Shown here piece after piece: positions 6,193-64,000 of a stretch of 64,000 nucleotides of DNA; the first letter of the stretch is position 1; the number at the start of each line of letters is the position of its first letter. The notes beneath the pieces were generated by a model, which saw only the letters and a list, made by a program, of their open reading frames with translations, did no database searches and was not told the origin of the DNA. The translations under genes were made by a program, and so were the position numbers. The stretch is from Dehalococcoidia bacterium (GTDB lineage Bacteria > Chloroflexota > Dehalococcoidia > Bin125). Location of the stretch: contig JAJEJC010000001.1 of the NCBI GenBank assembly GCA_022828105.1, positions 5,918-69,917 on the forward strand. Reading direction: 5' to 3'.

Positions 6193-6335
6193 GAACGTTA
6201 GCCTAGCGGCACATGTCGCATGCAGCCCGGACCCTGCAGTCGTGGTGCCGCCACCTGAACGAGGCCGACCCCGGCCGCCACTTCCGGATGAAGAGCGGGC
6301 GGGAGTGCTGGCGCTGCGCCTGCCGCAACCGGGGC

Positions 6336-6527: not shown

Positions 6528-6559
6528 GTGTCGAGGTACGCTCTCCCGAAGTGGGAGGG

Positions 6560-7450
6560 ATGCCTGTGTCAGTCAGACTTGTGTGCTGGAACATTGCCAA
6601 GCGGATTCAGACGTGGCATGAACTCGTTGCCATGGAGGGCGTCGATGTCGCGCTGTTGCAGGAAGCGGGGACGGTTCCGCCAGAGGTCGCGAGTCGTGTG
6701 ACGCCCGGTCCGGATGCGCACTGGGACTCGCATTTGTGGAACGCGCGCTGGTGGGACGAACAGCGATTCCCTCACCTGCTTGAGCGTTGGCCGAAGGTGG
6801 TCAAGCTGTCGGACCTCGTCGACATTGAGTGGTTCAAGCAGGTCAGCCCGATCAGCCTTGTCGCTCCCGATGAGATTGCCGTGAGTGGCATCGGCACCAT
6901 CGCCGCTGCACGAGTGACTCCTCAGGACTCAGAGACGGAGCCATTCATCGTCATCTCGATGTACGCACGCTGGATGAGTCCGCACCCATCAACGGGAAGC
7001 AAGTGGTCAGTCGGCTACTCGGACGGTTCAGCGCATCGGATCATCTCCGACCTCTCAGCCTTCATCGGCAACGCGGACCCCGCCACACATCGAATCCTCG
7101 CTGCCGGAGACCTCAACACGGTCTTCGGCAGCGAACCGAACGACCCACAAGCGCTCGCGGCTCGAGACCAAACCATCTTCGACCGGATGGAGGCGTTGGG
7201 CCTGGAGCTGCTGGGACCGCGTTCTCCCGGCGGCCGTCAAGCATCCCCAACTCCGGAGGGGCTGCCGGCAGACACGCGTAACGTACCGACGTTCAAATCA
7301 AGCCGTCAGACACCGGAGACTGCGCAGAGCCAACTCGACTACGTGTTCGCGTCGAGAGGCTTCCACGAGCGGATCAAGGTGCGAGCGCTGAACTCTCCCG
7401 AGGAGTGGGGCGCGAGCGACCACTGCCGCCTGCTGATTGAGATCGACTGA
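6560..7450 (+). CDS. endonuclease/exonuclease/phosphatase (EEP) family protein
   Basis: ATG at 6560 behind GGGAGG. N-terminal VCWNI ... LLQEA and C-terminal SDHCRLL are typical EEP catalytic motifs. Lower GC than the flanks. Confidence 0.75.
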   Translation: MPVSVRLVCWNIAKRIQTWHELVAMEGVDVALLQEAGTVPPEVASRVTPGPDAHWDSHLWNARWWDEQRFPHLLERWPKVVKLSDLVDIEWFKQVSPISLVAPDEIAVSGIGTIAAARVTPQDSETEPFIVISMYARWMSPHPSTGSKWSVGYSDGSAHRIISDLSAFIGNADPATHRILAAGDLNTVFGSEPNDPQALAARDQTIFDRMEALGLELLGPRSPGGRQASPTPEGLPADTRNVPTFKSSRQTPETAQSQLDYVFASRGFHERIKVRALNSPEEWGASDHCRLLIEID

Positions 7451-19704: not shown

Positions 19705-19731
19705 GCGGCTCTCGTTCCGCTGAGTTGGGCG

Positions 19732-20856: not shown

Positions 20857-20975
20857 ACTGCAAACGAACCGTTCTCTAGGATGAAGATGTGCGCCGGACG
20901 GGCCGGCGGCTGGAGATGGATCGCTCGAAGCGTATCAGCGACTCCTGCCTGGCGAACTTCCCGATGGAGCTGCGG

Positions 20976-39384: not shown

Positions 39385-42189
39385 ATGACCACCGAAACCG
39401 CACGCGAGGAAGCCGTCAACCCGCTGCTCGGACAGCTCCTCCGACAGCGCGGCATCCCCGCCCGCGCCGAACGACGCAGCCGCGGCGACACGCCCGACAT
39501 CCGCTACGAACTGCCGACCGGCGAACTCGTCCTGCTCGAATGCAAGTGGGAGTCCGGTCACGCCGACCTGCTCGACCAGCTCAACGACCGACTGACCGAC
39601 TTCCCCGACGCAATCGCCCGCGTCGGCGTCCTCTATCCCGACGCATTCAAGCACGTCGACGATATCCAGGACGAACTCGAACACACCCTCAACCTCCAGT
39701 GGTTCCTCCACAGTTCCCGACAGCAGACCTACGCCGACCCACCCATCCGCGACGGCGGTCTGGATCAACTCGCCGACCATCTCCGGCCGATCCTCCTGGA
39801 GGTTGAGGGCTACGACCTCATCACCCAGGCCGCAGACGACGTGCGACTCGCACTGGAAGACGCCGCCGCCTCCATCAACAAGCACGCCAACATTGGACGC
39901 CGAATCTCCGAGGTGATTGCCGAAGCGGATAAGGAGAGCGACCGCGCGGCCGCCCTGCGCATCGGCTGCCTCGTGCTATTCAATGCGCTCGCGTTTCAGG
40001 ATCGCCTCTCCGCCCTCAATGAAGACGTGCCAACGGCGCAGGAAGTGCTTAACGCCGGCGCAGCCGACTTGCGCGACATCTGGCTCACGATCTGTCGCGA
40101 GATTGACTACGTCCCAGTGTTCGAGATCGCCGCAGAGATCCTGGGCATCCTCAGCGATGCCCCTGGCAACATCCAGAACGGCGCCATCGTGCCACTGGTT
40201 AGGGCTGTAAGAAAGACCGCTCGAATCGAGGGGCACGATCTTGCGGGCCGTCTGTTCCACACCCTGCTTTCCGACGCCAAGTTCACAGGCGCCTACTACA
40301 CGTCCGTCCCAGCTGCCACCATCCTCTCCCGTCTGGTCTTCGAGGACTGGCCGAAAGGCGTTGACTGGTCCAACCACGAGCTCCCGTCAGCGCTCAACAT
40401 CGCCGACCTTGCCTGCGGTACTGGCACCTTGCTCATGGCAGTTGCCGCCGAAGCCGAACGCCGGCATCTGAATGCAGGGGGAAGCGACGCACGCCAGTTG
40501 CACAAGGAGCTAGTCGAACAGGCTTTGCACGGCTACGACGTGCAGCTCTCTGCGATCCACTTTGCTGCCACAAGCCTGGCCATGCTCAACCCTCACATTG
40601 AGTTCGACCGCATGAACCTCTACGTCATGCCACTCGGTGTCAACGGCGACCAGGTCTCGCTCGGCTCTCTGGACTTCCTCGAAGAGGGCAAAGCCCCAAT
40701 CCAGCATTCTCTATCAGCCCATGCCTTCGGCCTGTCCGAGCAGGCGGCGGAGCAAGTGACCGGTGGAGGTCTGGAGTCTTCCCCGACTCAGCAGACTGCA
40801 GAACTGCCCAAACTCGATCTTGCGATCATGAATCCGCCGTTTACACGCGCCGGACTGATGCTGTTCGGGATGTTGCCGCAAGCCGATCGCCGCAAGGTTC
40901 AGCAGGAGCTATCGCGCCGATTGCGCTCACGCAGCGGCTCCGCGATCGCTGGCCTCGGTGCGGCCTTCGTCGCCACCGCCGCGCCGAGGCTGCAACCGGG
41001 CGAAGGCCGCCTGGCGTTGGTGTTGCCCGCCACGCTCTGTACTGGGTCATCCTGGCAACAGACCCGCTCGTTGATTGAGCGCGACTTCAAGCTCGATATG
41101 GTCATCGCCTCACACGATCCCCTGCGCTGGAACTTCTCCGACAGCACCGACCTCTCTGAAGTCCTGCTGATCGCCACCAGGCGCGAGGTCGGCGAGATCG
41201 GCATGCAACACCGCACCACCTACGTCAATCTGTGGCAGAACCCCGACAGCGTGCTCGACGCCCAGCGAACCGCCGACGTCATCGCCCGAACCTCGCCCGC
41301 CGAAATCGAGTCGCTTGGTTGTGCGCTGCTCAGCGTCGGAGGACAACACGTCGGCGAAGCGACGTCGATCCCTATGTCGCGCTACAACAACCGCAAGTGG
41401 GCCGCCATCCAGTTCTCCCGCGCCGATCTCACCCGTGCCGCCTTGAGCCTGACTGAGACCGGCGAAATCAGCCTGCCAGGCTCAAGCCGAGCCGCCACGA
41501 TCTCCCTCTGCGAACTCTTAGACATCGCAACAATCGGCCCTGATCGCCGGCGCTTGATCGACGGATTCGAGCGGACGTCAACCATCACGGCCTATCCGAT
41601 GGTGGAAGGTCATGACACGGACGACCGCACGTCAATGACTTGTGCACCAGACGCCTACCTCTCCCCGCTCGCTGTCCCCAAAGGCGGGCAGCGTCCTGGC
41701 TACGGCGACCGGCTCTGGCAGATGTCGAGCCGCCTGCTCGTCGCAGAGCGACTTTGGCTGAACACGACTCGCGTTTTAGCCATGCATTGCGATCAAGCGG
41801 TGCTCTCCAACGTCTGGTGGGAGGTGCGGGTAGAGGACGAAGAGACTGAGAAGGCACTTGCTGTCTGGTTGAACCCAACGCTAGGCATCATCTCGCTCCT
41901 AGGGCAGCGCACGAGCACGCGTGCTGGCTGGGTCGCCAGCAAGAAAGCCGACCTGGGGAAGCTACCTGTCCTCGATCCGCGAGAGCTCTATCCAGAGCAG
42001 CGATCCCAGCTCGCTGACCTGTTCGATTCAAGCGCCCACCTCAGCTTCGAGCGCCTACCCGCAATGGTCGACTGCCCCGCCCGCAAAGCCCTGGACGACG
42101 GCCTCTCCGAGATTCTGGACTTGCCCGACTTGGCCGTGCTGAGGCGCTTGTTGGCGTCGGAGCCGGTGGTCTCGAATCAGCGGTTGTGA
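39385..42189 (+). CDS. single-chain PD-(D/E)xK nuclease-like / N6-adenine DNA methyltransferase / TRD fusion (type IIG/IIL-like R-M architecture)
   Basis: N-terminus TPDIRYEL...LVLLECKWE (D...ExK). MTase motifs GAYYTSVP, DLACGTGTLL, GYDVQ, IMNPPFTRAG. About 330-aa C-terminal tail with LNPTLGIISLL...LPVLDP pattern of TRDs. No obvious SD. Unusually C-ending codon bias. Confidence 0.7.
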   Translation: MTTETAREEAVNPLLGQLLRQRGIPARAERRSRGDTPDIRYELPTGELVLLECKWESGHADLLDQLNDRLTDFPDAIARVGVLYPDAFKHVDDIQDELEHTLNLQWFLHSSRQQTYADPPIRDGGLDQLADHLRPILLEVEGYDLITQAADDVRLALEDAAASINKHANIGRRISEVIAEADKESDRAAALRIGCLVLFNALAFQDRLSALNEDVPTAQEVLNAGAADLRDIWLTICREIDYVPVFEIAAEILGILSDAPGNIQNGAIVPLVRAVRKTARIEGHDLAGRLFHTLLSDAKFTGAYYTSVPAATILSRLVFEDWPKGVDWSNHELPSALNIADLACGTGTLLMAVAAEAERRHLNAGGSDARQLHKELVEQALHGYDVQLSAIHFAATSLAMLNPHIEFDRMNLYVMPLGVNGDQVSLGSLDFLEEGKAPIQHSLSAHAFGLSEQAAEQVTGGGLESSPTQQTAELPKLDLAIMNPPFTRAGLMLFGMLPQADRRKVQQELSRRLRSRSGSAIAGLGAAFVATAAPRLQPGEGRLALVLPATLCTGSSWQQTRSLIERDFKLDMVIASHDPLRWNFSDSTDLSEVLLIATRREVGEIGMQHRTTYVNLWQNPDSVLDAQRTADVIARTSPAEIESLGCALLSVGGQHVGEATSIPMSRYNNRKWAAIQFSRADLTRAALSLTETGEISLPGSSRAATISLCELLDIATIGPDRRRLIDGFERTSTITAYPMVEGHDTDDRTSMTCAPDAYLSPLAVPKGGQRPGYGDRLWQMSSRLLVAERLWLNTTRVLAMHCDQAVLSNVWWEVRVEDEETEKALAVWLNPTLGIISLLGQRTSTRAGWVASKKADLGKLPVLDPRELYPEQRSQLADLFDSSAHLSFERLPAMVDCPARKALDDGLSEILDLPDLAVLRRLLASEPVVSNQRL

Positions 42190-42264
42190 GCTTCCAGGCG
42201 GATCGCCACCTGTGAAGGCCATGGCTTGATTCGCCTATGAGTAACTGACCTGAGGAGAGGGATC

Positions 42265-43545
42265 ATGACCCAAGCCAGACGCCCCCGAGTTGCTGCGATC
42301 GGCATGAGTGATGCCCAGCTTGAGTCCATCTCTATGCTCTGCGGCGACCTCCGACATGCTGACACTTTGGCCGAGTATCTCCAGCGTTACAACTGGAGAG
42401 AGACAGACGTTGTCGTCGCCGAGGAGCTCGGATATGATCAAGTCGATCCTGGCGTTAATCTCATGATTGCCGGTCATACCAATCTGTCCTGGAGAGACAC
42501 TTATAGCACTCGAACGCGTCGGATTCAGCACAGAGCGTATACAAGACGTAGCAACACTGAGAGAGAAGTCAGCGTACCTAACTCTTGCCCAGACAACTAC
42601 AATTCACTCGCTGTGCGGTTGTCCAATCAGATCGCCAATGGCAAGGAACCACCACCTGTGTTAACGACTTCCCGTGAGGATAACACTGCCATCATCGAGA
42701 CGACATCGGGTCATCCTGTCGCGTTGCGTATTGAGTTACCACAACGAGAAGTCGGCGATGCTGTCACGCTCAATCGCCCAACAGCCCTGCTGCTTCCGCG
42801 AGTGTACAATCTCGCCGCCTGGTTCACAGCATTCCTAGTTGATGTCAACGTGCACGATCCTCGTCGTGTGCCCCAGCCACCACCACGCCTCCAGAGAGCC
42901 TCGGACTGGTATACGCCGAAAGAGAGAGCGCTGGCGGCGGAGATTGATAGAGCATCCGTAGACATCAGGCAAATGGTCGAGAAACGCGATCTGCTTCAGG
43001 AAGAACTAGTCAGTGCTGGTAAGGGGGCCGATCGAGAGACACGAAGAGTGATCTGGGAGGACGGTGAAGAGCTGGTCGCCGCGGTCAGCGAGATTCTGTC
43101 TGACCTCGGCTTTCAGGTTCAAGATATGGATGCTGGGCTAGATCCGAATGAGCAAAGGCATGAAGACCTACGGTTGACGGTGCCGCAGAGGCGCAACTGG
43201 GAAGGGATGGTTGAGGTCAAGGGCTACACCAACGGCACTCGAACGAACGACGCCCGCCAGATTCGTGAGCATCGTGAACACTACATCTCTGAGAAGGGTC
43301 AGCCTCCTGACTTGACTCTGTGGATCGTAAATCCATTCCGCCACAAGGATCCCTCGTCTCGCCCATCTCCCAGCAGCAACGTAGGAGAGGCTGCCTCAAA
43401 CGTCGGCGCGGTTCACGTCTTGGCGACAGACTTGTACCGGCTGTGGGTCCTCGCGCAGATAAGAGACTTGGACGCGGGTGACGTAGTACAGGAGCTGATC
43501 GACGCCACTCCGGGTCTCTGGAAGTCCACAGCGCTGGGCGACTGA
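42265..43545 (+). CDS. hypothetical partner protein with coiled-coil segment and C-terminal PD-(D/E)xK-like core
   Basis: Strong SD GAGGAGAGGG. C-terminus LVAAVSEILSDLGFQVQDMD...HEDLRLTV...MVEVKGYTNG (helix, D, ExK). AGA/AGG-rich, AT-ending codons unlike the flanks. Confidence 0.6.
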   Translation: MTQARRPRVAAIGMSDAQLESISMLCGDLRHADTLAEYLQRYNWRETDVVVAEELGYDQVDPGVNLMIAGHTNLSWRDTYSTRTRRIQHRAYTRRSNTEREVSVPNSCPDNYNSLAVRLSNQIANGKEPPPVLTTSREDNTAIIETTSGHPVALRIELPQREVGDAVTLNRPTALLLPRVYNLAAWFTAFLVDVNVHDPRRVPQPPPRLQRASDWYTPKERALAAEIDRASVDIRQMVEKRDLLQEELVSAGKGADRETRRVIWEDGEELVAAVSEILSDLGFQVQDMDAGLDPNEQRHEDLRLTVPQRRNWEGMVEVKGYTNGTRTNDARQIREHREHYISEKGQPPDLTLWIVNPFRHKDPSSRPSPSSNVGEAASNVGAVHVLATDLYRLWVLAQIRDLDAGDVVQELIDATPGLWKSTALGD

Positions 43546-43603
43546 CTGCCCGCTGCACCCCAAGCCAAGGTCGGTCCGGCGAATGGGTGAGCGACTGGGC
43601 GAA

Positions 43604-43669
43604 GCCGAGCGGGTCCCTGAGCGGAGTCAGGGACCGGAGGCCGAGCGGGTCCCTGCGTGAAGCGGGGAC
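43604..43669. repeat. REP-like repeats: GCCGAGCGGGTCCCTG x2 (period 36) with hairpins 43612-43635 and 43649-43669
   Basis: GGTCCCTGA-GCGGAG-TCAGGGACC and GTCCCTGC-GTGAA-GCGGGGAC. The latter is the inverted counterpart (loop GTGAA vs TTCAC) of the 39247 hairpin. Confidence 0.75.
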
Positions 43670-43736
43670 TTGGATGGTTGTAGGCTGGCGGGGACTGCGG
43701 CGTGGGCCGGGGGCAGCGTAAGCGGGCGTACAACTC

Positions 43737-44840
43737 GTGGCCAACCGACCGCTCGCTCAACTCCGCGAGCGTCGCCCTGAGTGGGCCGACGCGGGCGAGA
43801 CGCCGTTGCCCGGACTGTTGGGCATTCTCGCCTGGGCGACGCTGTCCGCCGCGCTGCTGGCGCTGGTCGCCGCCAACCTCGTCCTGGGCGCGTTCGACGT
43901 CGAGTTCCCGCGCATCGTGGGGCTGCTGTTCGACAAGGCCGGCATCGATCTGGGCATCGAGTACACGCGCCGCGAGGAGGCCGTGGTCTGGGTGATCCGG
44001 CTGCCGCGCATGGTCATGGCGGCGCTGGTCGGGGCCGGACTCGGCGTCTCCGGAGCGGCGCTGCAGGGGTTGTTCCGCAACCCGCTGGCCGATCCGGGCC
44101 TGATCGGCGTCTCCAGCGGCGCCGCGTTCGCCGTCGCGTTGTCGATCGTGCTCGGGATCACTGCCTGGGGATCGTTCGTGCAGCCGCTGGCGGCGTTCAT
44201 CGGCGGACTGACGCTGACCTTCCTGATCTACGCCTTCGCGCGGCGCAGCGGACGCCAGCAGATGGCGACGATGCTGCTGGTCGGCATCGCCGTCAACGCG
44301 CTGCTCGCCGCCGCGATCAGCTTCATCCTCTCCTTCTCCAACGACGCCGAGCTGCGCGACATCGTGTTCTGGACGCTGGGCAGCCTGGCCGGCTCGATCT
44401 GGAGCTATGTCCTCGCCGCCGCGCCGCTGATCCTCTTCGCCGTGGCGGTCCTGATCCGCCAGTCGGGCGCGCTCAACCTGCTCTCGCTCGGCGACGCCGA
44501 GGCCCGCCACCTGGGACTGCGCGTCCAGCGCTCGCAACTGTTTATCGTCACCGCCGCCGCGATGGCCACGGGCGCCGGCGTGGCGGTTGCCGGCGTGGTC
44601 GGATTCGTCGGCCTGATCGCGCCGCACATGGTGCGCCTCGCGGTCGGTCCCGATCACCGCCGCCTAATGCCGGCCAGCGCCATCGCCGGGGCCATCCTGG
44701 TGCTGGGCGCGGATCTTGCGGCGCGCACGATCGTCGCGCCGTCCGAGTTGCCCCTGGGCGTGCTCACGGCGCTGATCGGCACGCCGGTCTTCCTCTTCCT
44801 AATCGACCGCGCGCGCCGCAGCCTGGCCTCGGGCTTCTAG
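43737..44840 (+). CDS. FecCD-family ABC transporter permease (iron-siderophore/cobalamin type)
   Basis: LPRMVMAALVGAGLGVSGAALQGLFRNPLADPGLIGVSSGA is the hallmark FecCD region. GTG start. No cognate ATPase or binding protein adjacent. Confidence 0.85.
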   Translation: MANRPLAQLRERRPEWADAGETPLPGLLGILAWATLSAALLALVAANLVLGAFDVEFPRIVGLLFDKAGIDLGIEYTRREEAVVWVIRLPRMVMAALVGAGLGVSGAALQGLFRNPLADPGLIGVSSGAAFAVALSIVLGITAWGSFVQPLAAFIGGLTLTFLIYAFARRSGRQQMATMLLVGIAVNALLAAAISFILSFSNDAELRDIVFWTLGSLAGSIWSYVLAAAPLILFAVAVLIRQSGALNLLSLGDAEARHLGLRVQRSQLFIVTAAAMATGAGVAVAGVVGFVGLIAPHMVRLAVGPDHRRLMPASAIAGAILVLGADLAARTIVAPSELPLGVLTALIGTPVFLFLIDRARRSLASGF

Positions 44841-51437: not shown

Positions 51438-53708
51438 TCAGCCGGCGGCAGGGAGCCTCCAGCGTCCGAGGCGGAGCGCGTTGCCGAGCACCGACATGGA
51501 ACTGGCCACCATCGCGAGGGCCGCCGCGATCGGCTCGAACTGCCCGCGTTCGCCGAACAACCAGCCCAGGCCGCCGGACACGCCGCCGAGCGCGTCGAAG
51601 ATCGGTACCGCAAGCCCGGCGGCGAGCGGGATCAAGAGGATGTTGTAGCCAAACGCGAAGCCCAGATTCTGGCGGATCACGCGTCGAGTCGCGTGGCCAA
51701 GCAACACCGCCTGCGCGGCTCGCAAGGGATTGGACTGCATCAGGGTGACTTGCGCGGTCTCGACGGCGACATCGGAGCCCGTTCGCATCGACATGCCCAA
51801 CTCGGCCTCGGCAAGCGCAGGCGCGTCGTTGACGCCGTCCCCGACCATGACAACACGCTTGCCGCTCGCCTGCAAGTCCGCCACCAGGGCCGACTTCTCG
51901 GTCGGCAAGACCTGGGCATGGACCCGGTCGATACCGATCTGACGACCGACCTCACGGGCCGACATCTCAGTGTCGCCGCTGATCAGAACCGACTCCAGAC
52001 CGCGCCTGCGCAGCAAGTCAACCGCCTCTGCCGCTCCATCCTTGACGTAGTCGCCGAGCTGGATCACGCCAATCAGTTCGCCGCCACTGGCGACGTAGAC
52101 GGGCGTCGTCGGGCGTTCTTCCTCGCTGACCTCGATGCCCAACGCGGACATCAACTTGGCGTTGCCGACTGCGAGATCGCGCCCCTGTATCTGGCCGCTC
52201 GCGCCTCTCCCGGGATGTGATGTGAACCCGGAGATATCCAGCGGCGAGAGTTCCAGGCTGTCGACATGAGCCACGATTGCAGCGGCAAGCGGATGCTCGG
52301 ATTGCCGCTCAATCGAATCGGCGAGCTGAAGCAACTCCTGCTCGGTCACGCCGAATGCTTCAACCGAGGTCACTTCGTGCCGGCCACTGGTCAGGGTGCC
52401 TGTCTTGTCCCAGGCCACGGTGTCTACCCGGCCGGCTGCCTCCAGCGCCTCAGCGTCGCGAAAGAGTATGCCAAGCGATGCGGCGCGTCCCGCGCCGGCC
52501 GCAATTGCCGCAGGCGTCGCCAGACCCAGTGCGCAGGGACAGGCGACGACGAGCACCGCGACCGAGCTGAGCACGGCGCCGGTCCAGCTTGCGTCATTAC
52601 CCAGTAGTCCCCAGGCAACAAAAGTGATGACCGCAACCAGGATCACGATCGGCACGAACACGGACGCGATCCGGTCGGCGAGTCTCTGCACGGGAGCCTT
52701 CGACGATTGCGCCCGCTCGACCGCGGCCGTGATTCGCGCCAGCGCGGTCTCCGTTCCGACCTGCGTGGCCCGATAGCTGAACGCGCCATCGAGATTGATC
52801 GTCCCTGCGTACACGCCGTCGGTGGGACCCTTGGCAACCGGTAAGCTCTCGCCGGTCAGCGCGGCCTGGTCGACGGAGCTTTGACCGCTGGCAACCGTGC
52901 CGTCAACCGGAATCAGCTCGCCGGGCCGGACCAGCACAAGGTCGCCGACCTCGACCTCGGAGGCAGGTACGTCCCGCTCGACGCCGTCGGACGAGATGCG
53001 CGCGGTCTGCGGAGCGAGCTCCAGCAGGCGCGTCAATGCAGATGCGGCCAGTTGCCGCACGCGAGCCTCGAGCGCGCGGCCGAGACCGACGAAGCCGACG
53101 ATGATCAACGCCGTGTCGAAAAACACATCGCGCGCCGCGCCGGCCGACTCAAACGCCGCGGGCACGAGCGTTGCCGCCGCGCCGTAGCCCCAGGCGGCGA
53201 ACACGCCGATCACAATCAGCGTGTCCATGTCCGTGCTGCGGCGCATGGCGGCGAGCCAGGCCCGACGCAGCATTGGCCAGAGGCTCCAGGCGAGGATCGG
53301 CGAAGCGACGGCAAGCAAGACTGGATGCAGGATGTCGGGACTCCACCCGAACTCGCCCCAACGATTCGCCTGCATCGCGAAGAAGATGCCCCAGCCGACG
53401 ATTAACGCCGGCAACGCGCGACTGAGCATGGGGAGTAGATCCGGGGCTGCGACCGCGCCGTCATCGTCCGCCTGATCGAGCAGTTCGTATCCCGCGCCGC
53501 TGATCGCGGCGCTGAGCGCGGCGCGATCGGGGTCGCCGTCGACTCCAATCACCGCACGCCCGGCGAGAAAATCCGCCGAAGCGTCGACGACGCAGTCCAC
53601 CTTGACCAGGGCTCGCTCGACTCGCCGCACGCAGGCGGCGCAGTGCATTCCGTCGATGCGCAAGGTCTCGGTCCGTGACGCGTTGGCCGTGGTCATCGAT
53701 TGCAGCAT
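51438..53708 (-). CDS. copA: heavy-metal (copper-type) translocating P1B-type ATPase
   Basis: HMA domain [15 protein letters not shown] motif ([11 protein letters not shown]), [17 protein letters not shown]. Start at 53708 or 53696. Confidence 0.85.
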
Positions 53709-53739
53709 ATGTCGCTGCGACTGCGGGTAGCCTGAGCAC

Positions 53740-54963
53740 ATGCCGCGCGTGATGCTCCTGATACCCACCGCTTCCTATCGCGCGCCCGACTTCATGTCGG
53801 CAGCGGACAAGCTCGGTCTCGACGTGGTCGTTGCCTCGGACATCGATCAGCCGCTGGCCGACATGTATCCGGGCCGCTGGCTCACGCTGCCGTACCACGA
53901 CATCGCCCGCGGCGCGCAGGCGGTCGCCCGATACGCCGACCGCTTTCCCCTCGACGCGGTCGTGGCCGTCGACGATCCCGGCGCCATCCTGGCCGCCCAC
54001 GCCAGCGCCGAGCTGCAACTCACCGGCAACTCACCGGAGTCGGTGATTGGCACGCGAGACAAGTCAGAGTTACGCCGCGCGCTGGAGTCGCACGGCGTGC
54101 GCTCGCCGAGTTGGCAGGTCTGCCGCTTCGATGACGAGCCGCCGCTCGACGGATTGGAGTTTCCGGTCGTGGTCAAGCCGTTGGGCCTGAACGGCTCGCG
54201 CGGCGTAATCCGGGCCAACGACGAAGCGTCGCTGCGACGGGCGATCGAGCGGCTGCGCCTGCTGTTGAGCACGAAGTCTGCCGCCGAGGAGTGCGGCGAA
54301 CTGGCCGATCGCTACTTGATCGAGGGCTACATCCCGGGCTCGGAAGTGGCGCTCGAGGGGCTGCTGCGCGATGGCGAGCTGCACACCCTGGCAGTGTTCG
54401 ACAAACCCAACCCGCTGCACGGACCGTTCTTCGAAGAAACGATCTACGTCACGCCGTCGCGGCTTCCGGAAACGCAGATCGCAGAAGTCGTGGCGACCGC
54501 GCGGATGTCGGCGCAGGCGCTGGGCCTGCACGACGGACCGCTGCACGCGGAGTTGCGGCTCAACGACGAAGGCGCCTGGCCGGTCGATGTCGCTGCTCGC
54601 ACGATCGGCGGGCTGTGCGCGCGGACGCTGCGCTTCGGGGCGGGAATGTCGCTGGAGGAAATCGTGTTGCGGCACGCGATCAATGCGCCGCTCGCCTCGC
54701 TGAATCGCGAGTCAAGGGCGGCCGGCGTGATGATGATGCCGATCGTCGGCCGGGGACGCATCCGCGCGATCCGAGGACTGGACGAAGCCGCAGCGGTTCC
54801 CTTGATCGAGGAGATCGAAATGGAGGCCCGGGTCGGCGACATGCTGGTCCCGCTGCCCGAAGGCGCCGACTATCCCGGCTTCATCTTCGCCCGAGGCGAA
54901 GACCCCGCTGAGGTGGAGTCGGCGCTGCGAGAGGCATGGTCGAAGATCGAGTTTGTGCTGTGA
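53740..54963 (+). CDS. ATP-grasp domain protein (carboxylate-amine ligase-like, substrate unknown)
   Basis: Pre-ATP-grasp plus ATP-grasp layout ([29 protein letters not shown]). 407 aa. Confidence 0.7.
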
Positions 54964-55592: not shown

Positions 55593-56954
55593 TCAACGCT
55601 GTGGCGCGGAGCGGGGAATCAGCCGATTGACTGCAATGGACTCTACTGCTGTTCCTGGAGGCCGGGCGAAGTAGATCGGGATGACGGCCGCGTAGGTCAG
55701 GATTGCGACCAGAGTCAGGGGGACGTCGTAGGAACCGGTCAGATCGTCGAGCAGACCGATCAGCCAGGGTCCGATCCCGCTGGACATCTGCGTCGCCATG
55801 GCAATCATCCCGTAGACCGCGCCGAAGCTGACGTAGCCGAACACATCCGAGGTGAGCAGCGACATCAACATGTAGACGTTGCCAATCGTGAAGCCGAAGG
55901 TGAGCACGGCGACATAGGTCATGGCGGCGCTCTCGAACTGAATCACGACCAGCGCCGCAGTGCCTTGAACGACGAACATGATCACGGTCAAGATGCGCAG
56001 GTCGACGCGGTCGGCGAAGAAGCGTCCGACCACCAGCCGGGCGACAATGCTGCCGAAGGCGAGGATCGAGAGCGTGGTCGTGGCGGCAGTCAGCGATCCG
56101 AGCCGCTCCTCGAGCAGCGCGGTCTGATGGAGGATGAATCCTGTCTGGGCGAGCAGGACGATCAGGAAGCCGGTCATGATCGCCCAGAACGGTACCGTGC
56201 GGGCGGCCTGACTCACCGTCCAGGTCCGCGTCTGATTGGCGGCGGATCGGGCCACATTCGTCGCCACGCGGACGGCAGGACGCAGCCCGTCCTGGGGCAG
56301 GTTCATCTGGCGCGGGTCCCAGACCAGGACGAAGAAGACGATCGGCAGACCGATCACGAGGATCAAACCGGCCATCACCGGGGTCGCGACGCTGAGACCG
56401 AACTGTTCGATCAGGAAGCCGTTGAGCGGCGAGAGCACGACGCCGCCGAGCGAGACGCCGGTCGACGCCATCGCCATGGCCCAGGCCCGGCGCTGCACGA
56501 ACCAGCGCGTGAGCGTCGCGTTGACCGCGACGCCGGCGCTCATCCCCGAGCCCACCGCCAGGACGACGTAGGCGGCAAAGAGCTGCCAGAACTCCTGCAC
56601 CTGGCCGACGGCGCAGGCGGCGACGATGATTAGCAGCAGACCGGGCGCCATCCAGCGCTTCGCGCCCTGGCGGTCGATCCGTGGTCCGACCCAGGCAGCG
56701 GTGATGCCCGAGAACACGAAGTACATGCCCGTCGCCAGCGAGACCAGGCCGTTGCTCCAGCCGTGCATCTCCTGCAGCGGACCGAGGTAGACGGCGAGCC
56801 CGTAGTAGCCGACGCCGACGGAGACGAACATCAGCGCTCCGCAGGCGAACACGATCGCCCACCCGTAGTAGAAGCCGGACGGCAAGAGCCGCGCGGCCAG
56901 CGGCCGCTGCGGCGCCAGGCTGATGTCGTTGCGTACCGTTGGTTGTCTGGTCAT
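55593..56954 (-). CDS. MFS transporter
   Basis: About 12 hydrophobic segments. GPRIDRQGAKRWM loop 2-3 motif-like. 453 aa. Confidence 0.85.
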   Translation of the reverse strand: MTRQPTVRNDISLAPQRPLAARLLPSGFYYGWAIVFACGALMFVSVGVGYYGLAVYLGPLQEMHGWSNGLVSLATGMYFVFSGITAAWVGPRIDRQGAKRWMAPGLLLIIVAACAVGQVQEFWQLFAAYVVLAVGSGMSAGVAVNATLTRWFVQRRAWAMAMASTGVSLGGVVLSPLNGFLIEQFGLSVATPVMAGLILVIGLPIVFFVLVWDPRQMNLPQDGLRPAVRVATNVARSAANQTRTWTVSQAARTVPFWAIMTGFLIVLLAQTGFILHQTALLEERLGSLTAATTTLSILAFGSIVARLVVGRFFADRVDLRILTVIMFVVQGTAALVVIQFESAAMTYVAVLTFGFTIGNVYMLMSLLTSDVFGYVSFGAVYGMIAMATQMSSGIGPWLIGLLDDLTGSYDVPLTLVAILTYAAVIPIYFARPPGTAVESIAVNRLIPRSAPQR

Positions 56955-57073: not shown

Positions 57074-58197
<1,124 letters not shown>

Positions 58198-58201
<4 letters not shown>

Positions 58202-59577
58202 GTCTCGATCAAGCTGATCGCCGCGCTGTCCCTTGTGTCGCTCATGGGGGCCAACTGGTCCCCCGTGGGTTCGGCTCAACAGAACCAGTCTTCGGTCAGG
58301 CCCGGCTGGTGCAGATGCGGCGCGGGGATGTCGGGCCAGGGTTCCGCGCCCAGTGCATCGCATGCGGCGCGTTTGATCTCGGCGAACGACGCTCCGCGTT
58401 CGGCGAGCGCGGCCACCTGCCCTTGCAGGGCATCCATGCGTGCGTCGGAGTGCCGCCAGTTCCAGGTCAGACCGTCGGCGTCGTAGTCGACCAGCGCGCC
58501 CATCTCGCGCATCGGCACGACCAGCGGCGAGTCCGCGGGCACGAGTAGTCGCAAGCCGAGTTGTACGGGCGGCGTCAGGCCGACGAGCGCTCTCGACTCG
58601 ACGAACCGCAGCAGCGCGAGGTAGTCCTCGGCCGAGGTCCAGGGTGTGAACGGCAACCATGTCGGACGCAACGCGATGCCGGCCGCCTGTGTCGACTGCA
58701 GCACCTCGTCCAGGTCCGATGCCGAGTGGCCCTTGTCGAGCACCTCCAGCAGGCGGTCGTCTACGGACTCGAATGCAGAGGTGATGAACGTCACGCCGAG
58801 TTCGGCCATCTCGGCCAGCATGTCGCCGTGCTCGATCAGGTGCTCGACCTTGATCGTGGCGTCGAAGGTCAGTCCCGGATGCGCCTCGGCCGAGCGGCGC
58901 AGCAGATCAATCGCCAGTTGCGGCGCGTTGAGGAAGTCGGGGTCGCCGAACGTGATGTGTTCGGCGCCGGCGCCGATCTGCTGATCGATGTCGGCGAGCA
59001 CGGTTTCCGCGCCGTTGAGTCGCAGTCGCCCGGCGTAGATCGGCGTCAGCGGGCAGTGCGTGCAGTGGTGCGCGCAGCCGCGCGTCGCCTCGACATGGCC
59101 GGCCAGGTGCGCCACGCCTGAGGCGTCCATGTAACGGGCGTACTCGTCCAACGCAGGCAGCAGCGTGCGATCGGGAACAGGCCTCGCATCGCGGTCGAAG
59201 ACGGGAACAGTCGGCGCATCGCCTCCGTTGGCGAGCGCGACCAGTTGCAGGTCGGTGTCGCCGCTGATCGCACGACCGATGCCCAGCTCGCGAAGCGAGT
59301 TGGCGGCGAGTCCGTAGAACACGATCTTTTCCGACATCGATTCGATCTGACGTGCGATGCGGATGCCGAGCCGCGCCGCCGTGTGCATCGGCGTCGAGAT
59401 GCCAATCAGGTCCGCAGCATCAGCGGCCTCGGCGAGCCGCTCGGCGCTGACCGACTCGACGGCGAGATCAAGCGCCGAGACTTGATGACCGGCCGCTCGA
59501 AGGGCCGCCGCAGGCGCGGCAATCCCCAGCGGCTGGTGCCCTTGCTCGTACGTGGAAATCAGGAGGACGCGCGCCAT
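58198..59577 (-). CDS. CUAEP-tail B12-binding-domain radical SAM selenoprotein (in-frame TGA = Sec at 58276-58278)
   Basis: CxxxCxxC (CAHHCTHC). B12-binding-like N-terminus MARVLLISTYEQGHQPLG. The track ORF stops at ...DWFC-TGA, and read-through gives C-U-A-E-P plus 22 codons to TAA 58198-58200. SECIS-like hairpin lies 11 nt downstream. Confidence 0.75.
58246..58264 (-). promoter_or_regulatory. bacterial SECIS-like hairpin
   Basis: Minus strand GGGGG-A-CC-AGUU-GG-CCCCC starts 11 nt after the UGA. GU in the apical loop and one bulged A. Confidence 0.6.
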
Positions 59578-59605: not shown

Positions 59606-60214
59606 CTACTTCTTCGAGGGCTTGTAGTAGGGGTTCTCGCCCGACTGGTGATCGGTGACGTCGACCAGTTCCTCGATCTCGGGGAGCTGCTCTTTGACCG
59701 CAACCTCGATGCCCTGCTTGAGGGTGACATTGGCCATGCCGCAGCCCTGGCAGCCGCCGCCCATCTCGATGTAGGCCCTGGAACCTTGCACCTCGAGCAA
59801 CTGCACGAAGCCGCCGTGGGCGGCGATCTGCGGGTTGACCTGCTCGTCGAAGATGCGCTGAATCTCCTGAGCCAGCGGGTCGCGCCAGACGGGATTGGGA
59901 TTCGCAAACTCAAGGCCGGAGACGTTGGGGCCTTTGAACTCGTAGTGGACGGCAGTGCCGCGTAGGTCCTCGATCCGTTCGCCTTCGACGTAGAGCAGGA
60001 AATCGGGGTACTGCACGATCGCGTCGCCGGAGGGCTCGTATCCTCTCTCGACGATCGTCAGGACGTGTTCAAAGCCCTCAGAGGTGCGGCCGTTGATCTT
60101 CAGCCGCAGACCCGCCACTTCTTCCGGATAACCGGTCAAGACCTCGACCAACTTCTCGCGAGCCACCTCGGAAAAGGTGATGCCCAGATCGCCTGTCAGC
60201 GCCTCGGTTGTCAT
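59606..60214 (-). CDS. NfuA-like Fe-S cluster carrier (degenerate A-type N-domain plus Nfu C-domain)
   Basis: C-terminal IAAHGGFVQLLEV...GGGCQGCGMA CxxC Nfu motif. N-terminal HesB-like region without Cys. Start at 60214 or 60238. Confidence 0.75.
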   Translation of the reverse strand: MTTEALTGDLGITFSEVAREKLVEVLTGYPEEVAGLRLKINGRTSEGFEHVLTIVERGYEPSGDAIVQYPDFLLYVEGERIEDLRGTAVHYEFKGPNVSGLEFANPNPVWRDPLAQEIQRIFDEQVNPQIAAHGGFVQLLEVQGSRAYIEMGGGCQGCGMANVTLKQGIEVAVKEQLPEIEELVDVTDHQSGENPYYKPSKK

Positions 60215-60286
60215 TGCCTGCTCCCGTCCCGAACTCATTATCTAGCATAGCGTTCGGTCAGGTTGGATTTGTGACGGGAGCGCGAC

Positions 60287-62020
60287 ATGGCGGTCGAACG
60301 AGTCATCGTCGAGAAGAACATCGATATCCCGATGCGGGACGGAATCATCCTGCGGGCAGACCTCTACCGCCCGGAAGACGCCGATCGGCCGGGACGCGCG
60401 GTGCCGGGCGTCGTGACCCGCACGCCGTACGACAAGGAGATGTCGGGCGCGGGCCTGGTCGCGGTGATGCCCAGCGCGCTCAAACTGGCCGAGCGCGGCT
60501 ACGCGGTCGTCGTCTGCGATTGCCGCGGACGCTATGCCTCGGAAGGCGACTTCAAACCGTTCCACCAGGAAGGTCCCGACGGCTACGACACGCTCGAGTG
60601 GGTCGCCGCGCAACCCTGGTGCGACGGCAACACGGCCATCTACGGCCCGTCCTATGTCGGCGCGACGACGATGCTGGCCGCGCGCGAGCGGCCGCCGTCG
60701 CTGCGCTGCGCGATACCAATCATCACCGCCGACGACTACTACGACGGTTGGACCTACCAGGGCGGCGCGTTCCAGCTTGGATTCGTGGGACTCTGGGGCA
60801 GCGGACTGGCCGCGACTGGTTACTTGCAACAAGATCACAAGCGGCCGGCCGAGGCGCAGGCGGACATGACCGAGGCAATCATGGGCAACGCCTTCCGCCT
60901 GCTCGGCAGTCGTCCGCTGAACGCAATGCCCGGCATCTCGCAGGATGGCGTCGCGCCCTACTGGCACGAGTGGCTCGAACACGAGACGCGGGACGAGTAC
61001 TGGGAATCGGTCCGGCATTCGGCCGATTACTCACGCTTCCAGGTGCCGATGCTGCACATCGGCGGCTGGTTCGACATCTTCGGGATCGGCACAGTCAGGA
61101 ATTTCCGTGGCATCACGGCTGATGGCAATCCAAAACAGCATCTGATCATGGGTCCCTGGGCGCACACCAACTACGACCGCTGGCTGGGCGAGATGGAGTT
61201 CGGTCCGACCGGCGCCGCAGCGGCGGCCAACGTGATGGCCGACATCAATAAGTTCCTCGACACGCACCTGAAGGGCAGCAAACGCGAGGTCGCCACGGTG
61301 CGCTGGTTCCTGATGGGCGCGAACGAATGGCGCACGGACGAGTCCTGGCCGCCGCCCAGCGCGGAGGAGCGGAGCTGGTACCTGGGTTCGGACGGAGGCG
61401 GCAACCTGCACTACGGCGACGGCCGCCTGACGGACGAGTGTCCCGACGACGACATGCGTTGGGACGAGTTCACCTACGTGGGTTACAAGCCGGTGATCAC
61501 CGAAGGCGGATCGACCCTGCAACAGGCGATTGGCCTGCCCGGCCCGCGCAACCAGTCCCACGCCGAGAGCCGCGATGACGTGCTCTGCTACACCACCGAA
61601 CCGCTGACGGCGCCAATCGACGTGGCCGGACCGGTCGAAGTCGACATCTGGCTCTCCAGCAGTCAACCGGACACCGACATCACGGCCAAGCTGGTCGACG
61701 TGCACCCCGACGGCAAGCCGGTCTCGCTGGTCGACGGAATCACGCGGGCCCGCTTCCGCGAGGGATTCGATCGCGAGGTCATGCTCACGCCGGGCGAGGT
61801 CGTCAAGCTGACCGTGGACCTGGCCTCGCTGGGTCACCGTTTCGATGTCGGACACCGGATCCGACTGGAAGTGTCGAGCAGCAACTACCCTCGCTTCATG
61901 GCGAACTCGAACGACGGCGGTTCGGTCAACTCGGCGACCGAGATGCAGACCGCGATCAACCGGATTCGCCGCGGCGGCGAGCATCCCTCGGCGCTGCGCA
62001 TGTACGTCCTGGAAGCCTGA
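60287..62020 (+). CDS. CocE/NonD family hydrolase (S15 X-Pro dipeptidyl-peptidase-like)
   Basis: IPMRDG..L.ADLYRP, TRTPYDK, GPSYVGATT nucleophile elbow, C-terminal beta-jelly-roll region. Confidence 0.85.
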   Translation: MAVERVIVEKNIDIPMRDGIILRADLYRPEDADRPGRAVPGVVTRTPYDKEMSGAGLVAVMPSALKLAERGYAVVVCDCRGRYASEGDFKPFHQEGPDGYDTLEWVAAQPWCDGNTAIYGPSYVGATTMLAARERPPSLRCAIPIITADDYYDGWTYQGGAFQLGFVGLWGSGLAATGYLQQDHKRPAEAQADMTEAIMGNAFRLLGSRPLNAMPGISQDGVAPYWHEWLEHETRDEYWESVRHSADYSRFQVPMLHIGGWFDIFGIGTVRNFRGITADGNPKQHLIMGPWAHTNYDRWLGEMEFGPTGAAAAANVMADINKFLDTHLKGSKREVATVRWFLMGANEWRTDESWPPPSAEERSWYLGSDGGGNLHYGDGRLTDECPDDDMRWDEFTYVGYKPVITEGGSTLQQAIGLPGPRNQSHAESRDDVLCYTTEPLTAPIDVAGPVEVDIWLSSSQPDTDITAKLVDVHPDGKPVSLVDGITRARFREGFDREVMLTPGEVVKLTVDLASLGHRFDVGHRIRLEVSSSNYPRFMANSNDGGSVNSATEMQTAINRIRRGGEHPSALRMYVLEA

Positions 62021-62043
62021 GCGAACAGAGAGAGGAACGATCG

Positions 62044-62370
62044 ATGATTTACGAACTGCGTATCTACACGGCGCATCCGGGCAAGATGGGCGCGCTGATG
62101 AAGCGCTTCCGCGACCACACGATGGAGCTGTTCGAGCGCCACGGCATCCACAACGTGGGCTACTGGATCAACTCGGTCGGCGGCCGCTCGGACGAGCTGT
62201 GGTACATCATCAGCTTTGAGAGCGCCGGCCAGCGCGACGAAGCCTGGCGCAACTTCGCCTCCGATCCCGAGTGGGTGGCCGCCCGCGCCGCATCGGAGGA
62301 AGACGGCCCGCTCGTCCATCACATCGAAAACCGAATCCTCCAACCCACCGAGTGGTCGCCGATGCCGTAG
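62044..62370 (+). CDS. NIPSNAP family protein
   Basis: MIYELRIYTAHPGKMGALMKRF... typical NIPSNAP ferredoxin-like repeat. 108 aa. Confidence 0.8.
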   Translation: MIYELRIYTAHPGKMGALMKRFRDHTMELFERHGIHNVGYWINSVGGRSDELWYIISFESAGQRDEAWRNFASDPEWVAARAASEEDGPLVHHIENRILQPTEWSPMP

Positions 62371-62438
62371 AGGCAATCAGGCGGGATCTCCGTCTGGGAA
62401 CGCCGCACTCCAGATGAGACAATGATATCCTTGGGTAA

Positions 62439-62879
62439 ATGATTCCCGAGTTCAGCGACAACGGACTCCTGCCGCCGGGGATCTACTGGGTCTCGTGGAG
62501 CGAGATGACCGAGCGGTTTAGCCACAGTCCTCGGCGCAGGAAGCTGCTGGACGGACTCTTTGCTGCGCTGCAGAGCCTGAAGATTGCCGGCTGCCAGACG
62601 CTATACATCGACGGGAGCTTCGTCACCGCCAAGGAGAATCCGAACGACTATGACGCCTGTTGGGAAGAGGCCGGTGTAGATCCCGATGTACTTGACCCCG
62701 TGCTCCTGACATTCGATGCCGGACGGACGGCGCAGAAGGACAAGTATCTCGGAGAACTGTTTCCCGTAAGCGCTGTTGCGGACTCTCAAGGCTCGTCGTT
62801 TCTGGAGTTCTTTCAGACAGACCGTGAGATGGGAAAACGCAAGGGCATCCTCGCGATCGACCTTGGGGGAATGTCATGA
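62439..62879 (+). CDS. minimal nucleotidyltransferase-fold protein (putative toxin-antitoxin component)
   Basis: DGSFVTAKENPNDYDACW matches the pol-beta NTase hG[GS]x9-13DxD motif. 146 aa. Lower GC. 4-nt ATGA overlap with the next gene. Confidence 0.6.
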   Translation: MIPEFSDNGLLPPGIYWVSWSEMTERFSHSPRRRKLLDGLFAALQSLKIAGCQTLYIDGSFVTAKENPNDYDACWEEAGVDPDVLDPVLLTFDAGRTAQKDKYLGELFPVSAVADSQGSSFLEFFQTDREMGKRKGILAIDLGGMS

Positions 62880-63322
62880 TCAAGAACGAGCGGCAGTATC
62901 GGATCTCGAAGGCTCAGGCTTCCCGATTCAGACGGACCCTGGAGGAATTGCAGCAGGGAGGAAGGGCAGCCGAGGGTCTTCATCCTCGGATCGCTCAGGC
63001 GCAGATTGATGCCGTAGCAAGTCAACTGACAGACCTGGAAGACGAAATCCAAGACTATGAGGCGCTGAGACGCGGCGAGTTCCAGGTCGGACAGTTGGTA
63101 TTGGTTGACGAGTTGGCGACGATGTTGATTAAGGCTCGAATCGCCAATCGCCTGAGCCAGAAGGATCTGGCACAACGGCTCGGCCTCAAAGAGCAGCAGA
63201 TTCAGCAGTACGAAGCCACGGATTACACGTCGGCAAGTCTGCGGAGATTGCAGGAGGTCGCCCATGCGCTCGGGGTCGAGCAGGACCGCGATTTTCAGCC
63301 ATCCGCGTCGCGCGAGCCGTAA
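62876..63322 (+). CDS. XRE-family HTH protein with N-terminal helical extension (HigA/COG5499-like antitoxin architecture)
   Basis: RLSQKDLAQRLGLKEQQIQQYE HTH_3 core. N-terminal IKNERQYRISKAQ...YEALRRGE helical region. Confidence 0.7.
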   Translation: MIKNERQYRISKAQASRFRRTLEELQQGGRAAEGLHPRIAQAQIDAVASQLTDLEDEIQDYEALRRGEFQVGQLVLVDELATMLIKARIANRLSQKDLAQRLGLKEQQIQQYEATDYTSASLRRLQEVAHALGVEQDRDFQPSASREP

Positions 63323-63355
63323 GCACGCTGAGCAGGCTCGGCGTCTTGGCGCTCT

Positions 63356-64000
63356 TCAGCCGCGATGGCGGAGTCTCGCAACCATGACCGGGGGGATCTG
63401 CGGGAGCTGATCCCAGCTCAGGCGATGAGGCGAGTCGCCGTCCCCGCCGTCGGTGATTGAGGGCTCTCGGATGCCGTCAAGCACCCAGCCTCGGTCGAAT
63501 GCGGTGCTGAAGAGCTCAGTCAGCGTGCGGTCGAAGTAGGGCTGAATCGCCGGCTGCCCTTTGACCGCGATGCCGTGGTTGACACCGGTGTTGAGGTAGT
63601 TGGTGATCTTCACACCCGACTCCTCGATGAACCGTCCGTCCTCGGTCTCCCGGCGTTCCTCGTAGAGGTGCACCTGCGGGCCGGGCCGAAAGACCGGATG
63701 CAGCACCGAGAACACAAACGGTGCGCCTTCCGAGAGCGCAAGCGGGAGCATGTCGAAGAGCGGCGAGATCTCGGCGATGTCCATCAGCGCCATGTTGCAG
63801 ACCACAGCGCCGAATGGCGCGCCCGATGCGCCGGAGAGCGCGGCCAGCGCGCTGCGGTCGGTCGCGTCGAGTCGGATCCAACGGATGTTGTGCCCGTCGG
63901 AACGCTCCCTGGCCTGTTCGAGCTGCGCGTCCGAACCGTCGCTGGCCGTAACGGCGACGCCGAGTCTCGCCAACTGGCGCGCGAAGTTGCCGTTGCCGCA
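63356..64000 (-). CDS. class I SAM-dependent methyltransferase (partial, N-terminus beyond window end)
   Basis: Frame open to position 64000. CGNGNFARQLARLGVAVTASD is SAM motif I with the acidic post-I residue. Stop at 63356. Confidence 0.75.
   Translation of the reverse strand, partial: CGNGNFARQLARLGVAVTASDGSDAQLEQARERSDGHNIRWIRLDATDRSALAALSGASGAPFGAVVCNMALMDIAEISPLFDMLPLALSEGAPFVFSVLHPVFRPGPQVHLYEERRETEDGRFIEESGVKITNYLNTGVNHGIAVKGQPAIQPYFDRTLTELFSTAFDRGWVLDGIREPSITDGGDGDSPHRLSWDQLPQIPPVMVARLRHRG

Follow-up and report, generated by a model that had tools for sequence, protein, structure and literature searches.

An in-frame UGA in a radical SAM gene of a Dehalococcoidia bacterium is almost certainly a selenocysteine codon

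In a 64,000-nucleotide stretch of a Dehalococcoidia genome (contig JAJEJC010000001.1 of assembly GCA_022828105.1; hereafter the window), we find that a gene for a radical S-adenosylmethionine (SAM) protein, here called the rSAM gene, contains an in-frame UGA at codon 434 that is almost certainly, from the comparative evidence below, a selenocysteine (Sec) codon, with a product 25 residues longer than called. The full-length gene occupies positions 58198–59577 on the minus strand and has 459 codons including Sec434, an extent based on the open frame and on its continuation in homologs. It starts with an ATG at 59577, runs for 433 codons to the TGA at 58276–58278, continues for 25 open codons (AEPTGDQLAPMSDTRDSAAISLIET) and stops at a TAA (58200–58198). 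The codon order around this site is CTG ACC GAA GAC TGG TTC TGT, TGA, GCC GAA CCC ACG GGG GAC CAG TTG GCC CCC ATG, and the predicted C-terminal peptide of the recoded product is ...DWFC-U-AEPTGDQLAPMSDTR. The original prediction, made from the letters of the window alone, had described an open reading frame (ORF) ending ...LTEDWFC at this TGA and followed by GCC GAA CCC, a frame that stays open past the resulting CUAEP motif to the TAA (25 codons in all after the TGA), and a 4-nt overlap between the 3' end of the gene and the stop of a convergent deacetylase ORF (57074–58201). Our minus-strand reading bears out each of these points.

The prediction that gene callers would truncate the gene was also right. 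The database copy of the window protein (P0001) is called at 433 amino acids and ends at WFC, and our homolog search returned ~100 close relatives that are likewise called at 433 amino acids, all with a ...TEDWFC end. The predicted protein consists of an N-terminal Rossmann domain resembling B12-binding domains, a radical SAM core, and a Cys433-Sec434-AEPT tail. Both domains, which the original prediction had recognized by eye, pass the Pfam gathering thresholds: Radical_SAM (PF04055) with 45.5 bits, and B12-binding (PF02310) with 39.6 bits, where 32.1 is required. The CxxxCxxC motif for the SAM-cleaving [4Fe-4S] cluster is CAHHCTHC (C168, C172 and C175; positions 59053–59076, minus strand), and it is invariant in the family.

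Comparison with homologs argues that translation continues past the TGA. We assembled 80 genome loci, all of them from metagenome-assembled genomes (MAGs) of Dehalococcoidia or other Chloroflexota, with 47–83% protein identity. There were 81 sites at which the codon following WFC was readable, among them the window gene and a second, partial copy in one locus (L049). This codon is TGA at 78 of the 81 sites and TGC or TGT at three (a Cys codon in 3 of the 80 genome loci), and at all 81, TGA and Cys forms alike, codon 434 is followed in frame by AEPT..Q[LF]AP. Stop codons lie 11–50 codons past codon 434, and the conserved endings are clade-specific, the window's clade ending in ..ISLIEx, for example, and a distant clade in ..LDRALGV. 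When the 48 nt from the TGA onward are aligned without gaps, the Ala, Glu, Pro and Thr codons vary only at their third position, which is the mark of translated sequence. Because the genes located downstream differ from clade to clade across the 80 loci, conservation of the tail is not owed to an overlapping gene. We also found eight full-length Cys-form proteins, more distant than the 433-residue set, which read WFCCAEPT.AQLAPLD. Two checks suggested with the original prediction, a search for orthologs that end at the FC-stop and a search for Cys homologs at the Sec position, thus gave no orthologs of the first kind and, of the second, three DNA sites and eight proteins. Genome-wide reassignment of TGA was considered and ruled out, because half of the window's 70 long ORFs (35) end in TGA, which is an ordinary stop codon there. 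Sec forms outnumber Cys forms by 78 to 3 among the DNA sites, and by ~110 to 8 among the 120 proteins listed. This predominance of Sec is the opposite of the usual pattern in selenoprotein families.

A hairpin with the properties of a bacterial selenocysteine insertion sequence (SECIS) lies immediately past the UGA. It occupies positions 58246–58264 on the minus strand (19 nt; GGGGG-A-CC-AGUU-GG-CCCCC), and we assign it from its fold, its covariation and the constraints of a published model. It starts exactly 11 nt past the UGA, as the original prediction had stated when proposing that its size and spacing suit a SECIS, and it consists of 7 bp with a bulged A beneath an apical AGUU loop (58256–58253). 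The distance from UGA to loop is 19 nt, and G24 and U25, in a numbering that starts at the U of the UGA, correspond to positions 58255 and 58254. The published model for bacterial SECIS elements specifies a loop of 3–9 nt, a stem of 4–16 bp, an early-loop G followed by G or U, a UGA-to-loop distance of 16–37 nt, and a minimum free energy ≤ -7.5 (PMC13188914). The window hairpin fits this model in full, with its AGUU loop, 7 bp, 19-nt distance and -13.5 kcal/mol. As in the Escherichia coli fdhF type of bacterial SECIS, the hairpin is inside the coding sequence just past the UGA and has an early-loop G followed by U; its 11-nt gap and G24/U25 are within 1 nt of those in E. coli fdhF (G23/U24). 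Unlike the fdhF element, its bulged base is A instead of U, and the primary sequences are unrelated.

Folding energies set the hairpin apart from synonymous alternatives. The 27-nt hairpin segment has an energy of -13.5 kcal/mol, whereas 3000 synonymous recodings of its peptide give -7.1 +/- 2.4, with just 0.37% of them as low as the real sequence. Across the family, the median hairpin energy is -11.1 kcal/mol versus -7.2 for recodings, and the median for seven distinct Cys forms, -6.4 kcal/mol, is at the random level. There is no run of U residues after the hairpin.

The family alignment reveals covariation in the stem. Among 75 distinct TGA forms, a helix of 7 bp (columns 16–22 and 28–34) closing an AGUUN loop is 83% paired, and C22, A23, G24, U25 and G28 are invariant. 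The helix has a covariation score of 0.255, compared to 0.118 in shuffled alignments; none of 500 shuffles reached 0.255, and registers slid along the alignment scored no higher than 0.151. Pair 17–33, for example, occurs as GC (26 forms), CG (20), AU (9) and GU (9), and pair 20–30 as AU (41), GC (9) and CG (4). On the 3' side, the covarying pairs involve wobble positions in Ala and Pro codons, and on the 5' side non-synonymous positions of codons 6 and 7; since these two kinds of position covary, it is the RNA that is under constraint. A similar picture holds for the loop: CAGUU is present in 73 of the 75 Sec forms and in two of the seven distinct Cys forms, one of which (L110) looks like a recent Sec-to-Cys conversion. 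All 66 TGA forms in which the loop encodes Leu do so by TTG or TTA, as opposed to CTT or CTC in the three Cys-form genome loci, and TTG makes up only 4 of the 55 Leu codons in the window's rSAM gene. In the window's own clade, which has Asp (GAC) at codon 7, the stem register is shifted by one base, giving the bulged A and the 4-nt AGUU loop; this arrangement is clade-specific. We tried the window's register (5+2 bp with bulged A) as the family-wide structure and rejected it, as it is 65.9% paired and no better than shuffles. On these alignments, the hairpin is a SECIS under RNA-level selection that is relaxed in most Cys forms, so the third of the suggested checks, conservation of the hairpin among homologs, came out in favor of the prediction, with compensatory changes in the stem.

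Two irregular rSAM loci turned up in the course of these comparisons. The partial copy in L049 (positions 10179–10251) is a 73-nt duplicate, at 97% identity, of the WFC-UGA-AEPT-SECIS segment, located downstream of the intact gene, whose end near 7420 is 2.8 kb away. Translated, it gives ..REAWFC-U-AEPTEEQLAPLEKALTV, and it must be either a stray copy of the recoding module or a product of misassembly. In L029, a MAG built from long reads, positions 5748–6829 contain ~3 tandem repeats of the 5' end of the rSAM gene, each ~315 bp long and 86–90% identical, with an intact copy following from ~6684.

The window also contains selA, the gene for L-seryl-tRNA(Sec) selenium transferase, at 20976–22370 on the plus strand. 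The original prediction had pointed to it, and it scores 525.6 bits against TIGR00474 (cutoff 267.9). To our knowledge SelA has no role besides Sec-tRNA synthesis, and the gene provides evidence, at the level of homology, that the host organism can make Sec-tRNA. Two related chromosomes, OZ242948.1 and OZ242034.1, carry both a TGA-form rSAM gene and selA. A scan with a SelA pattern identified 29 loci, among which these two chromosomes are the only ones in common with the rSAM loci, too few for a contrast between Sec and Cys forms. Genes for tRNA-Sec and SelB adjoin selA only in distant Chloroflexia and in other phyla. In the window (18082–22370), selA is divergent from a class V aminotransferase-like ORF (19732–20856, minus strand) and a D-3-phosphoglycerate dehydrogenase-like ORF (18082–19704, minus strand). 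Named by reading their sequences, these look like serine-pathway genes placed next to an enzyme that converts Ser-tRNA(Sec).

The original prediction placed the protein in the CUAEP/CCAEP-tail family of radical SAM proteins, and this claim is essentially correct. The best profile match, over its full length, is NCBIfam NF040546 (E = 1.4e-141, 472.5 bits with the tail included and U written as C, covering profile positions 1–467 of 468), and the tail is shared; on the other side, the score is just short of the curated equivalog cutoff of 500, which counts against formal membership. Proteins of the window's clade score 455–473, the range widens to 455–491 when two intermediate clades are included, and the scores of bona fide members, which come from the distant clade, are 560–603. 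Like NF040546 members, the window protein has a C-[U/C]-A-E-P-T tail after a conserved PGLTExWF and the same architecture of B12-like and radical SAM domains, and its gene has an NfuA-like gene upstream, an L-amino-acid ligase nearby, and a SECIS at the same position with an AGUU loop. Unlike them, it is shorter by ~25–45 residues (433 residues ahead of the Sec as against ~456–464), its C-terminus is ..ISLIEx instead of ..LDRALGV, its SECIS register is shifted with a bulged A, and genes for a deacetylase and a major facilitator superfamily (MFS) transporter are interposed between the rSAM gene and the ligase. Because the score falls short of the cutoff while the tail, architecture, SECIS and neighbors are shared, we file the window gene, from profile and alignment data, as a sister clade of the NF040546 lineage and not as a formally called member. 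NCBI names the window-clade proteins plainly "radical SAM protein", and P0107, a protein that NCBI does name as CUAEP-tail, is itself stored truncated at WFC.

The CUAEP/CCAEP-tail family has been called uncharacterized in a preprint, which remarks that CU motifs are rare and occur mostly in heavy-metal-handling proteins (Haft preprint, 10.1101/2022.07.06.499078); the original prediction, in describing the function of the family as unknown, agrees with that text. The single sentence in the preprint is the only mention of the family that we found, and the family does not appear in the main text of a 2026 review of prokaryotic selenoproteins. It is a selenoprotein family that was already catalogued, and the window gene is a further, sub-threshold case of it and not a new kind.

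The second profile match of the rSAM protein is to ArsL (NF040542; E = 3.5e-73, residues 4–395), with a score of 247.2 bits that is below the cutoff of 450. By this measure ArsL, an enzyme of arsinothricin biosynthesis, is the closest characterized relative of the window protein. The CxxxCxxC motif of ArsL is canonical, yet the enzyme cleaves SAM to MTA and a 3-amino-3-carboxypropyl (ACP) species, from which it builds a C-As bond. As(III) is bound by the RCCLKC tail at its C-terminus, which product formation requires but SAM cleavage does not (bioRxiv 10.1101/2024.02.01.577332; 10.64898/2026.04.29.721666). The former study reports no cobalamin requirement (10.1101/2024.02.01.577332). The window protein resembles ArsL in having its CxxxCxxC core after the same N-terminal domain, and a vicinal pair of chalcogens in a motif at the extreme C-terminal tail. 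The invariant cysteines of the rSAM family are C168, C172, C175 and C433 only, so an auxiliary cluster is unlikely.

Like cobalamin-dependent (class B) radical SAM enzymes, the window protein has a predicted N-terminal Rossmann domain of the cobalamin-binding type (PF02310). The closest solved folds are AprD4 (TM-score 0.68–0.71), followed by TsrM, OxsB, MgmA, TokK and CysS (0.57–0.65). All six share with it a Rossmann-type domain resembling B12-binding domains followed by a radical SAM barrel, but sequence identity is just 13–22% and none of the six carries a Cys-Sec tail. AprD4 has a B12-type domain and yet is not known to depend on cobalamin. Sequence searches of the PDB gave only weak matches to partial radical SAM cores (Elp3 and MiaB). 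An AlphaFold2 model of a Cys-form homolog, P0113, has an overall predicted local distance difference test score (pLDDT) of 91 and a predicted template modeling score of 0.91; pLDDT is 66–68 in the tail, which is consistent with a mobile C-terminal arm in the modeled structure.

The most constant neighbor of the rSAM gene encodes an NfuA-like Fe-S carrier (59606–60238, minus strand) with a degenerate A-type domain and a NifU domain containing CxxC. As the original prediction noted, it lies on the same strand and ends 28 nt upstream of the rSAM start. An NfuA-like gene is directly upstream of the rSAM gene, on the same strand, in 72 of the 80 loci and also in the Cys-form contigs L110–L114, and the spacing across loci ranges from a 28-nt gap to a 4-nt overlap; from this arrangement, the two genes probably share one operon. 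The second recurrent neighbor is an ATP-grasp L-amino-acid ligase (53740–54963, plus strand; PDB 3VOT, E = 3e-41; BacD, E = 6e-16), whose ortholog in L059 has the Pfam domains ATP-grasp_4, LAL_C2 and ATPgrasp_N. Such a ligase is found near the rSAM gene in the window, in 65 of the 80 genome loci, and in L110–L112. Divergent from the ligase is a copper-type P1B heavy-metal ATPase (51438–53768, minus strand; TIGR01511, 512 bits against a cutoff of 397), present in 41 loci, and its functional link to the rSAM cluster is uncertain. The listed starts of the ATPase and ligase ORFs overlap by 29 nt, and the GTG start of the ATPase has probably been called too far upstream; the same divergent pair is seen in the 41 loci.

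Other neighbors are more restricted. A histone-deacetylase-family amidohydrolase (57074–58201, plus strand; Pfam Hist_deacetyl, 289 bits) is convergent with the rSAM gene and occurs in 43 loci, in closer clades only, and an MFS transporter (55593–56954, minus strand), located between the deacetylase and the ligase, is likewise found mainly in closer clades. A class I SAM-dependent methyltransferase (63356–64000, minus strand) is cut by the end of the window. It is present in 37 loci and is directly upstream of the Nfu gene in L037 and L041; it is a generic enzyme, and no ArsM model matched it. Its ORF is listed from an internal TTG since the window end cuts the gene, and we therefore dismissed the notion that the ORF at 63356–63973 is broken by an in-frame stop and lacks its SAM-binding motif: it simply runs off the window. 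A TehB-like methyltransferase after the ligase in L110 (3498–4097, minus strand) was tried as an ArsM analogue, and TBLASTN found no copy of it in other loci. The neighbors as annotated are compatible with a small-molecule pathway, although inherited synteny within one bacterial class could account for much of their conservation. Elsewhere at this end of the window, positions 62439–63322 hold two small ORFs (146 and 148 amino acids, overlapping by 4 nt) in a region of lower GC content (61.8% for 62001–64000). The pair is found in only one of the 80 related loci (L010) and resembles a small insertion, perhaps of toxin and antitoxin genes. Further dips in GC content occur at 2001–4000 (61.4%) and 42001–44000 (60.5%), against a background of ~67%.

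The comparative evidence very strongly supports a reading in which UGA434 is no stop but is decoded as selenocysteine by the usual bacterial pathway, with Sec-tRNA made by SelA and delivered by SelB, under the direction of the hairpin 11 nt past it, with its A-G-U-U loop and G24/U25. Incorporation of selenium at UGA434 is, on this evidence, a prediction. Translation would go on through AEPTGDQLAP to the TAA at 58198, which puts Cys433 and Sec434 side by side on a C-terminal arm of the product. The NfuA-like carrier would most likely load or repair the [4Fe-4S] cluster of the rSAM enzyme. By analogy with ArsL, the mobile Cys-Sec arm might hold a soft, thiophilic substrate (a metalloid or metal) at the SAM/[4Fe-4S] site, or might act there as a selenenylsulfide redox arm; the selenium atom may take part in the chemistry and not be a passive ligand, as is suggested by the preference for Sec over Cys at 78 of 81 sites; and the L-amino-acid ligase could ligate an amino-acid product. 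We offer these three steps tentatively and with low confidence.

Several observations weigh against the functional analogy. The tail of the window protein is CU-AEP and not RCCLKC, and with C433 and U434 as its only conserved tail chalcogens it has two chalcogen ligands (one of them Se) where ArsL has three. No arsM, arsQ or ars operon was seen near the rSAM gene, and no ArsM model matched the scanned neighbors, although no search was aimed at ArsM. The ligase and the P1B ATPase are on the strand opposite the rSAM gene and are therefore not co-transcribed with it. The most elaborate form of the analogy, in which the CU-tail enzymes are ArsL-like, the Cys-Sec arm holds As, Sb, Se, Te or a metal, a SAM-derived 3-amino-3-carboxypropyl group is attached to it, and the ligase (in some clades with the methyltransferase, deacetylase and MFS exporter) builds a peptide-borne organometalloid antimetabolite, is a speculation that we consider improbable.

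A different function for the tail is a possibility to which we give limited credence: Cys433-Sec434 may be a redox-active selenenylsulfide on a flexible arm that supplies the radical SAM site with electrons or a hydrogen atom, with no metalloid binding. The Gly-Cys-Sec-Gly tail of mammalian thioredoxin reductase offers a comparison. The vicinal Cys-Sec pair on a low-confidence and probably mobile tail fits such a role, as does the strong preference for Sec over Cys, which is typical of redox-active sites; also in its favor are the conservation of only two chalcogen ligands in the tail, against three in ArsL, and the lack of an adjacent arsenic or metalloid gene. Against it, ArsL, the closest characterized homolog, binds its substrate with the tail, CU motifs cluster in heavy-metal-handling proteins according to the Haft preprint, and a copper-type P1B ATPase recurs nearby. 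Nothing in the evidence is decisive between a redox arm and a substrate-binding arm.

It is much less likely, indeed very unlikely, that the Sec is consumed, the enzyme being a sacrificial donor whose Se is passed to a carbon radical, yielding an organoselenium compound, with the NfuA-like partner serving a cycle of turnover or repair. NfuA and lipoyl synthase supply the precedent for such a cycle, and this idea would suit the coupling of a dedicated Nfu-type carrier to the rSAM gene in 72 of 80 loci, the ability of ArsL-type enzymes to bond carbon to a heteroatom held by the tail, and the predominance of Sec in the family. However, Cys forms with the same neighbors exist, so selenium cannot be obligatory, and a one-turnover protein would be costly.

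Recoding itself also has points against it. By ARAGORN and Rfam there is no tRNA-Sec in the 64-kb window, and a six-frame motif scan of it found no SelB (G1 motif) or SelD (G-[C/U]-G-C-K); the sole motif match, at 40197, is in an Arg-rich frame that looks non-coding. Rfam gave no SECIS or other meaningful match, either at gathering thresholds over the whole window or in a permissive search of 58150–58340. A plain shuffle of the 71-nt stretch gave z = 0.01, so this test alone does not set the hairpin apart. The register of the window's clade has no family-wide support, and within the clade its stem is conserved without covarying. Finally, the peptide encoded by the hairpin (T-G-D-Q-L-A-P) is conserved in Cys forms too, and part of the conservation of the hairpin sequence is therefore at the protein level. 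Even so, it is extremely unlikely that the TGA is a true stop where gene callers end the gene, with the 433-residue protein as sole product and the hairpin and its conservation due to, for example, a terminator or mRNA-stability element for the convergent genes: although the gene calls, the shuffle result for the 71-nt region and the lack of SelB, SelD and tRNA-Sec in the window would suit that reading, it is contradicted by the three-base periodicity past the TGA with invariant first and second codon positions, by Cys forms that encode the same tail peptide after TGC or TGT, by a C-terminus conserved to a shared stop despite different downstream genes, by the lack of a U-run behind the hairpin, by a loop GUU that is maintained through rare Leu codons in TGA forms only, and by the presence of SelA.

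Overall, a recoded, SECIS-directed radical SAM selenoprotein is very probably the best explanation of the data as a whole, with the ArsL-like function standing as a separate and much weaker proposal. Support for recoding is as good as sequence analysis can give, and on the same footing the observation that prompted this study is confirmed as real and its interpretation supported as correct. What is new here is the description of the SECIS with its covariation, the predominance of Sec, the Nfu and ligase partners, the truncation and under-calling of the clade, and the hypothesis based on ArsL.

For annotation, the consequence is that the window gene, ~100 of its homologs and even entries that NCBI names as CUAEP-tail proteins are stored without the Sec, the residue for which the family is named. 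Since the window's clade is just under the NF040546 cutoff, pipelines label its members plain radical SAM proteins and recoding is never considered. The SECIS described here has covariation support, a fixed spacing to its AGUU loop and two stem registers, and it could be the starting point of a model that detects Sec genes across Chloroflexota. For the biology of the family, what matters is that Sec prevails, at 78 of 81 sites, in a radical SAM lineage that is uncharacterized and whose nearest characterized relative, ArsL, makes C-As bonds on a C-terminal Cys tail. If the organometalloid reading, improbable as we rate it, were true, there would be an unrecognized natural-product pathway widespread in uncultured marine Dehalococcoidia, in which Sec would be the substrate-handling residue of a radical SAM enzyme.

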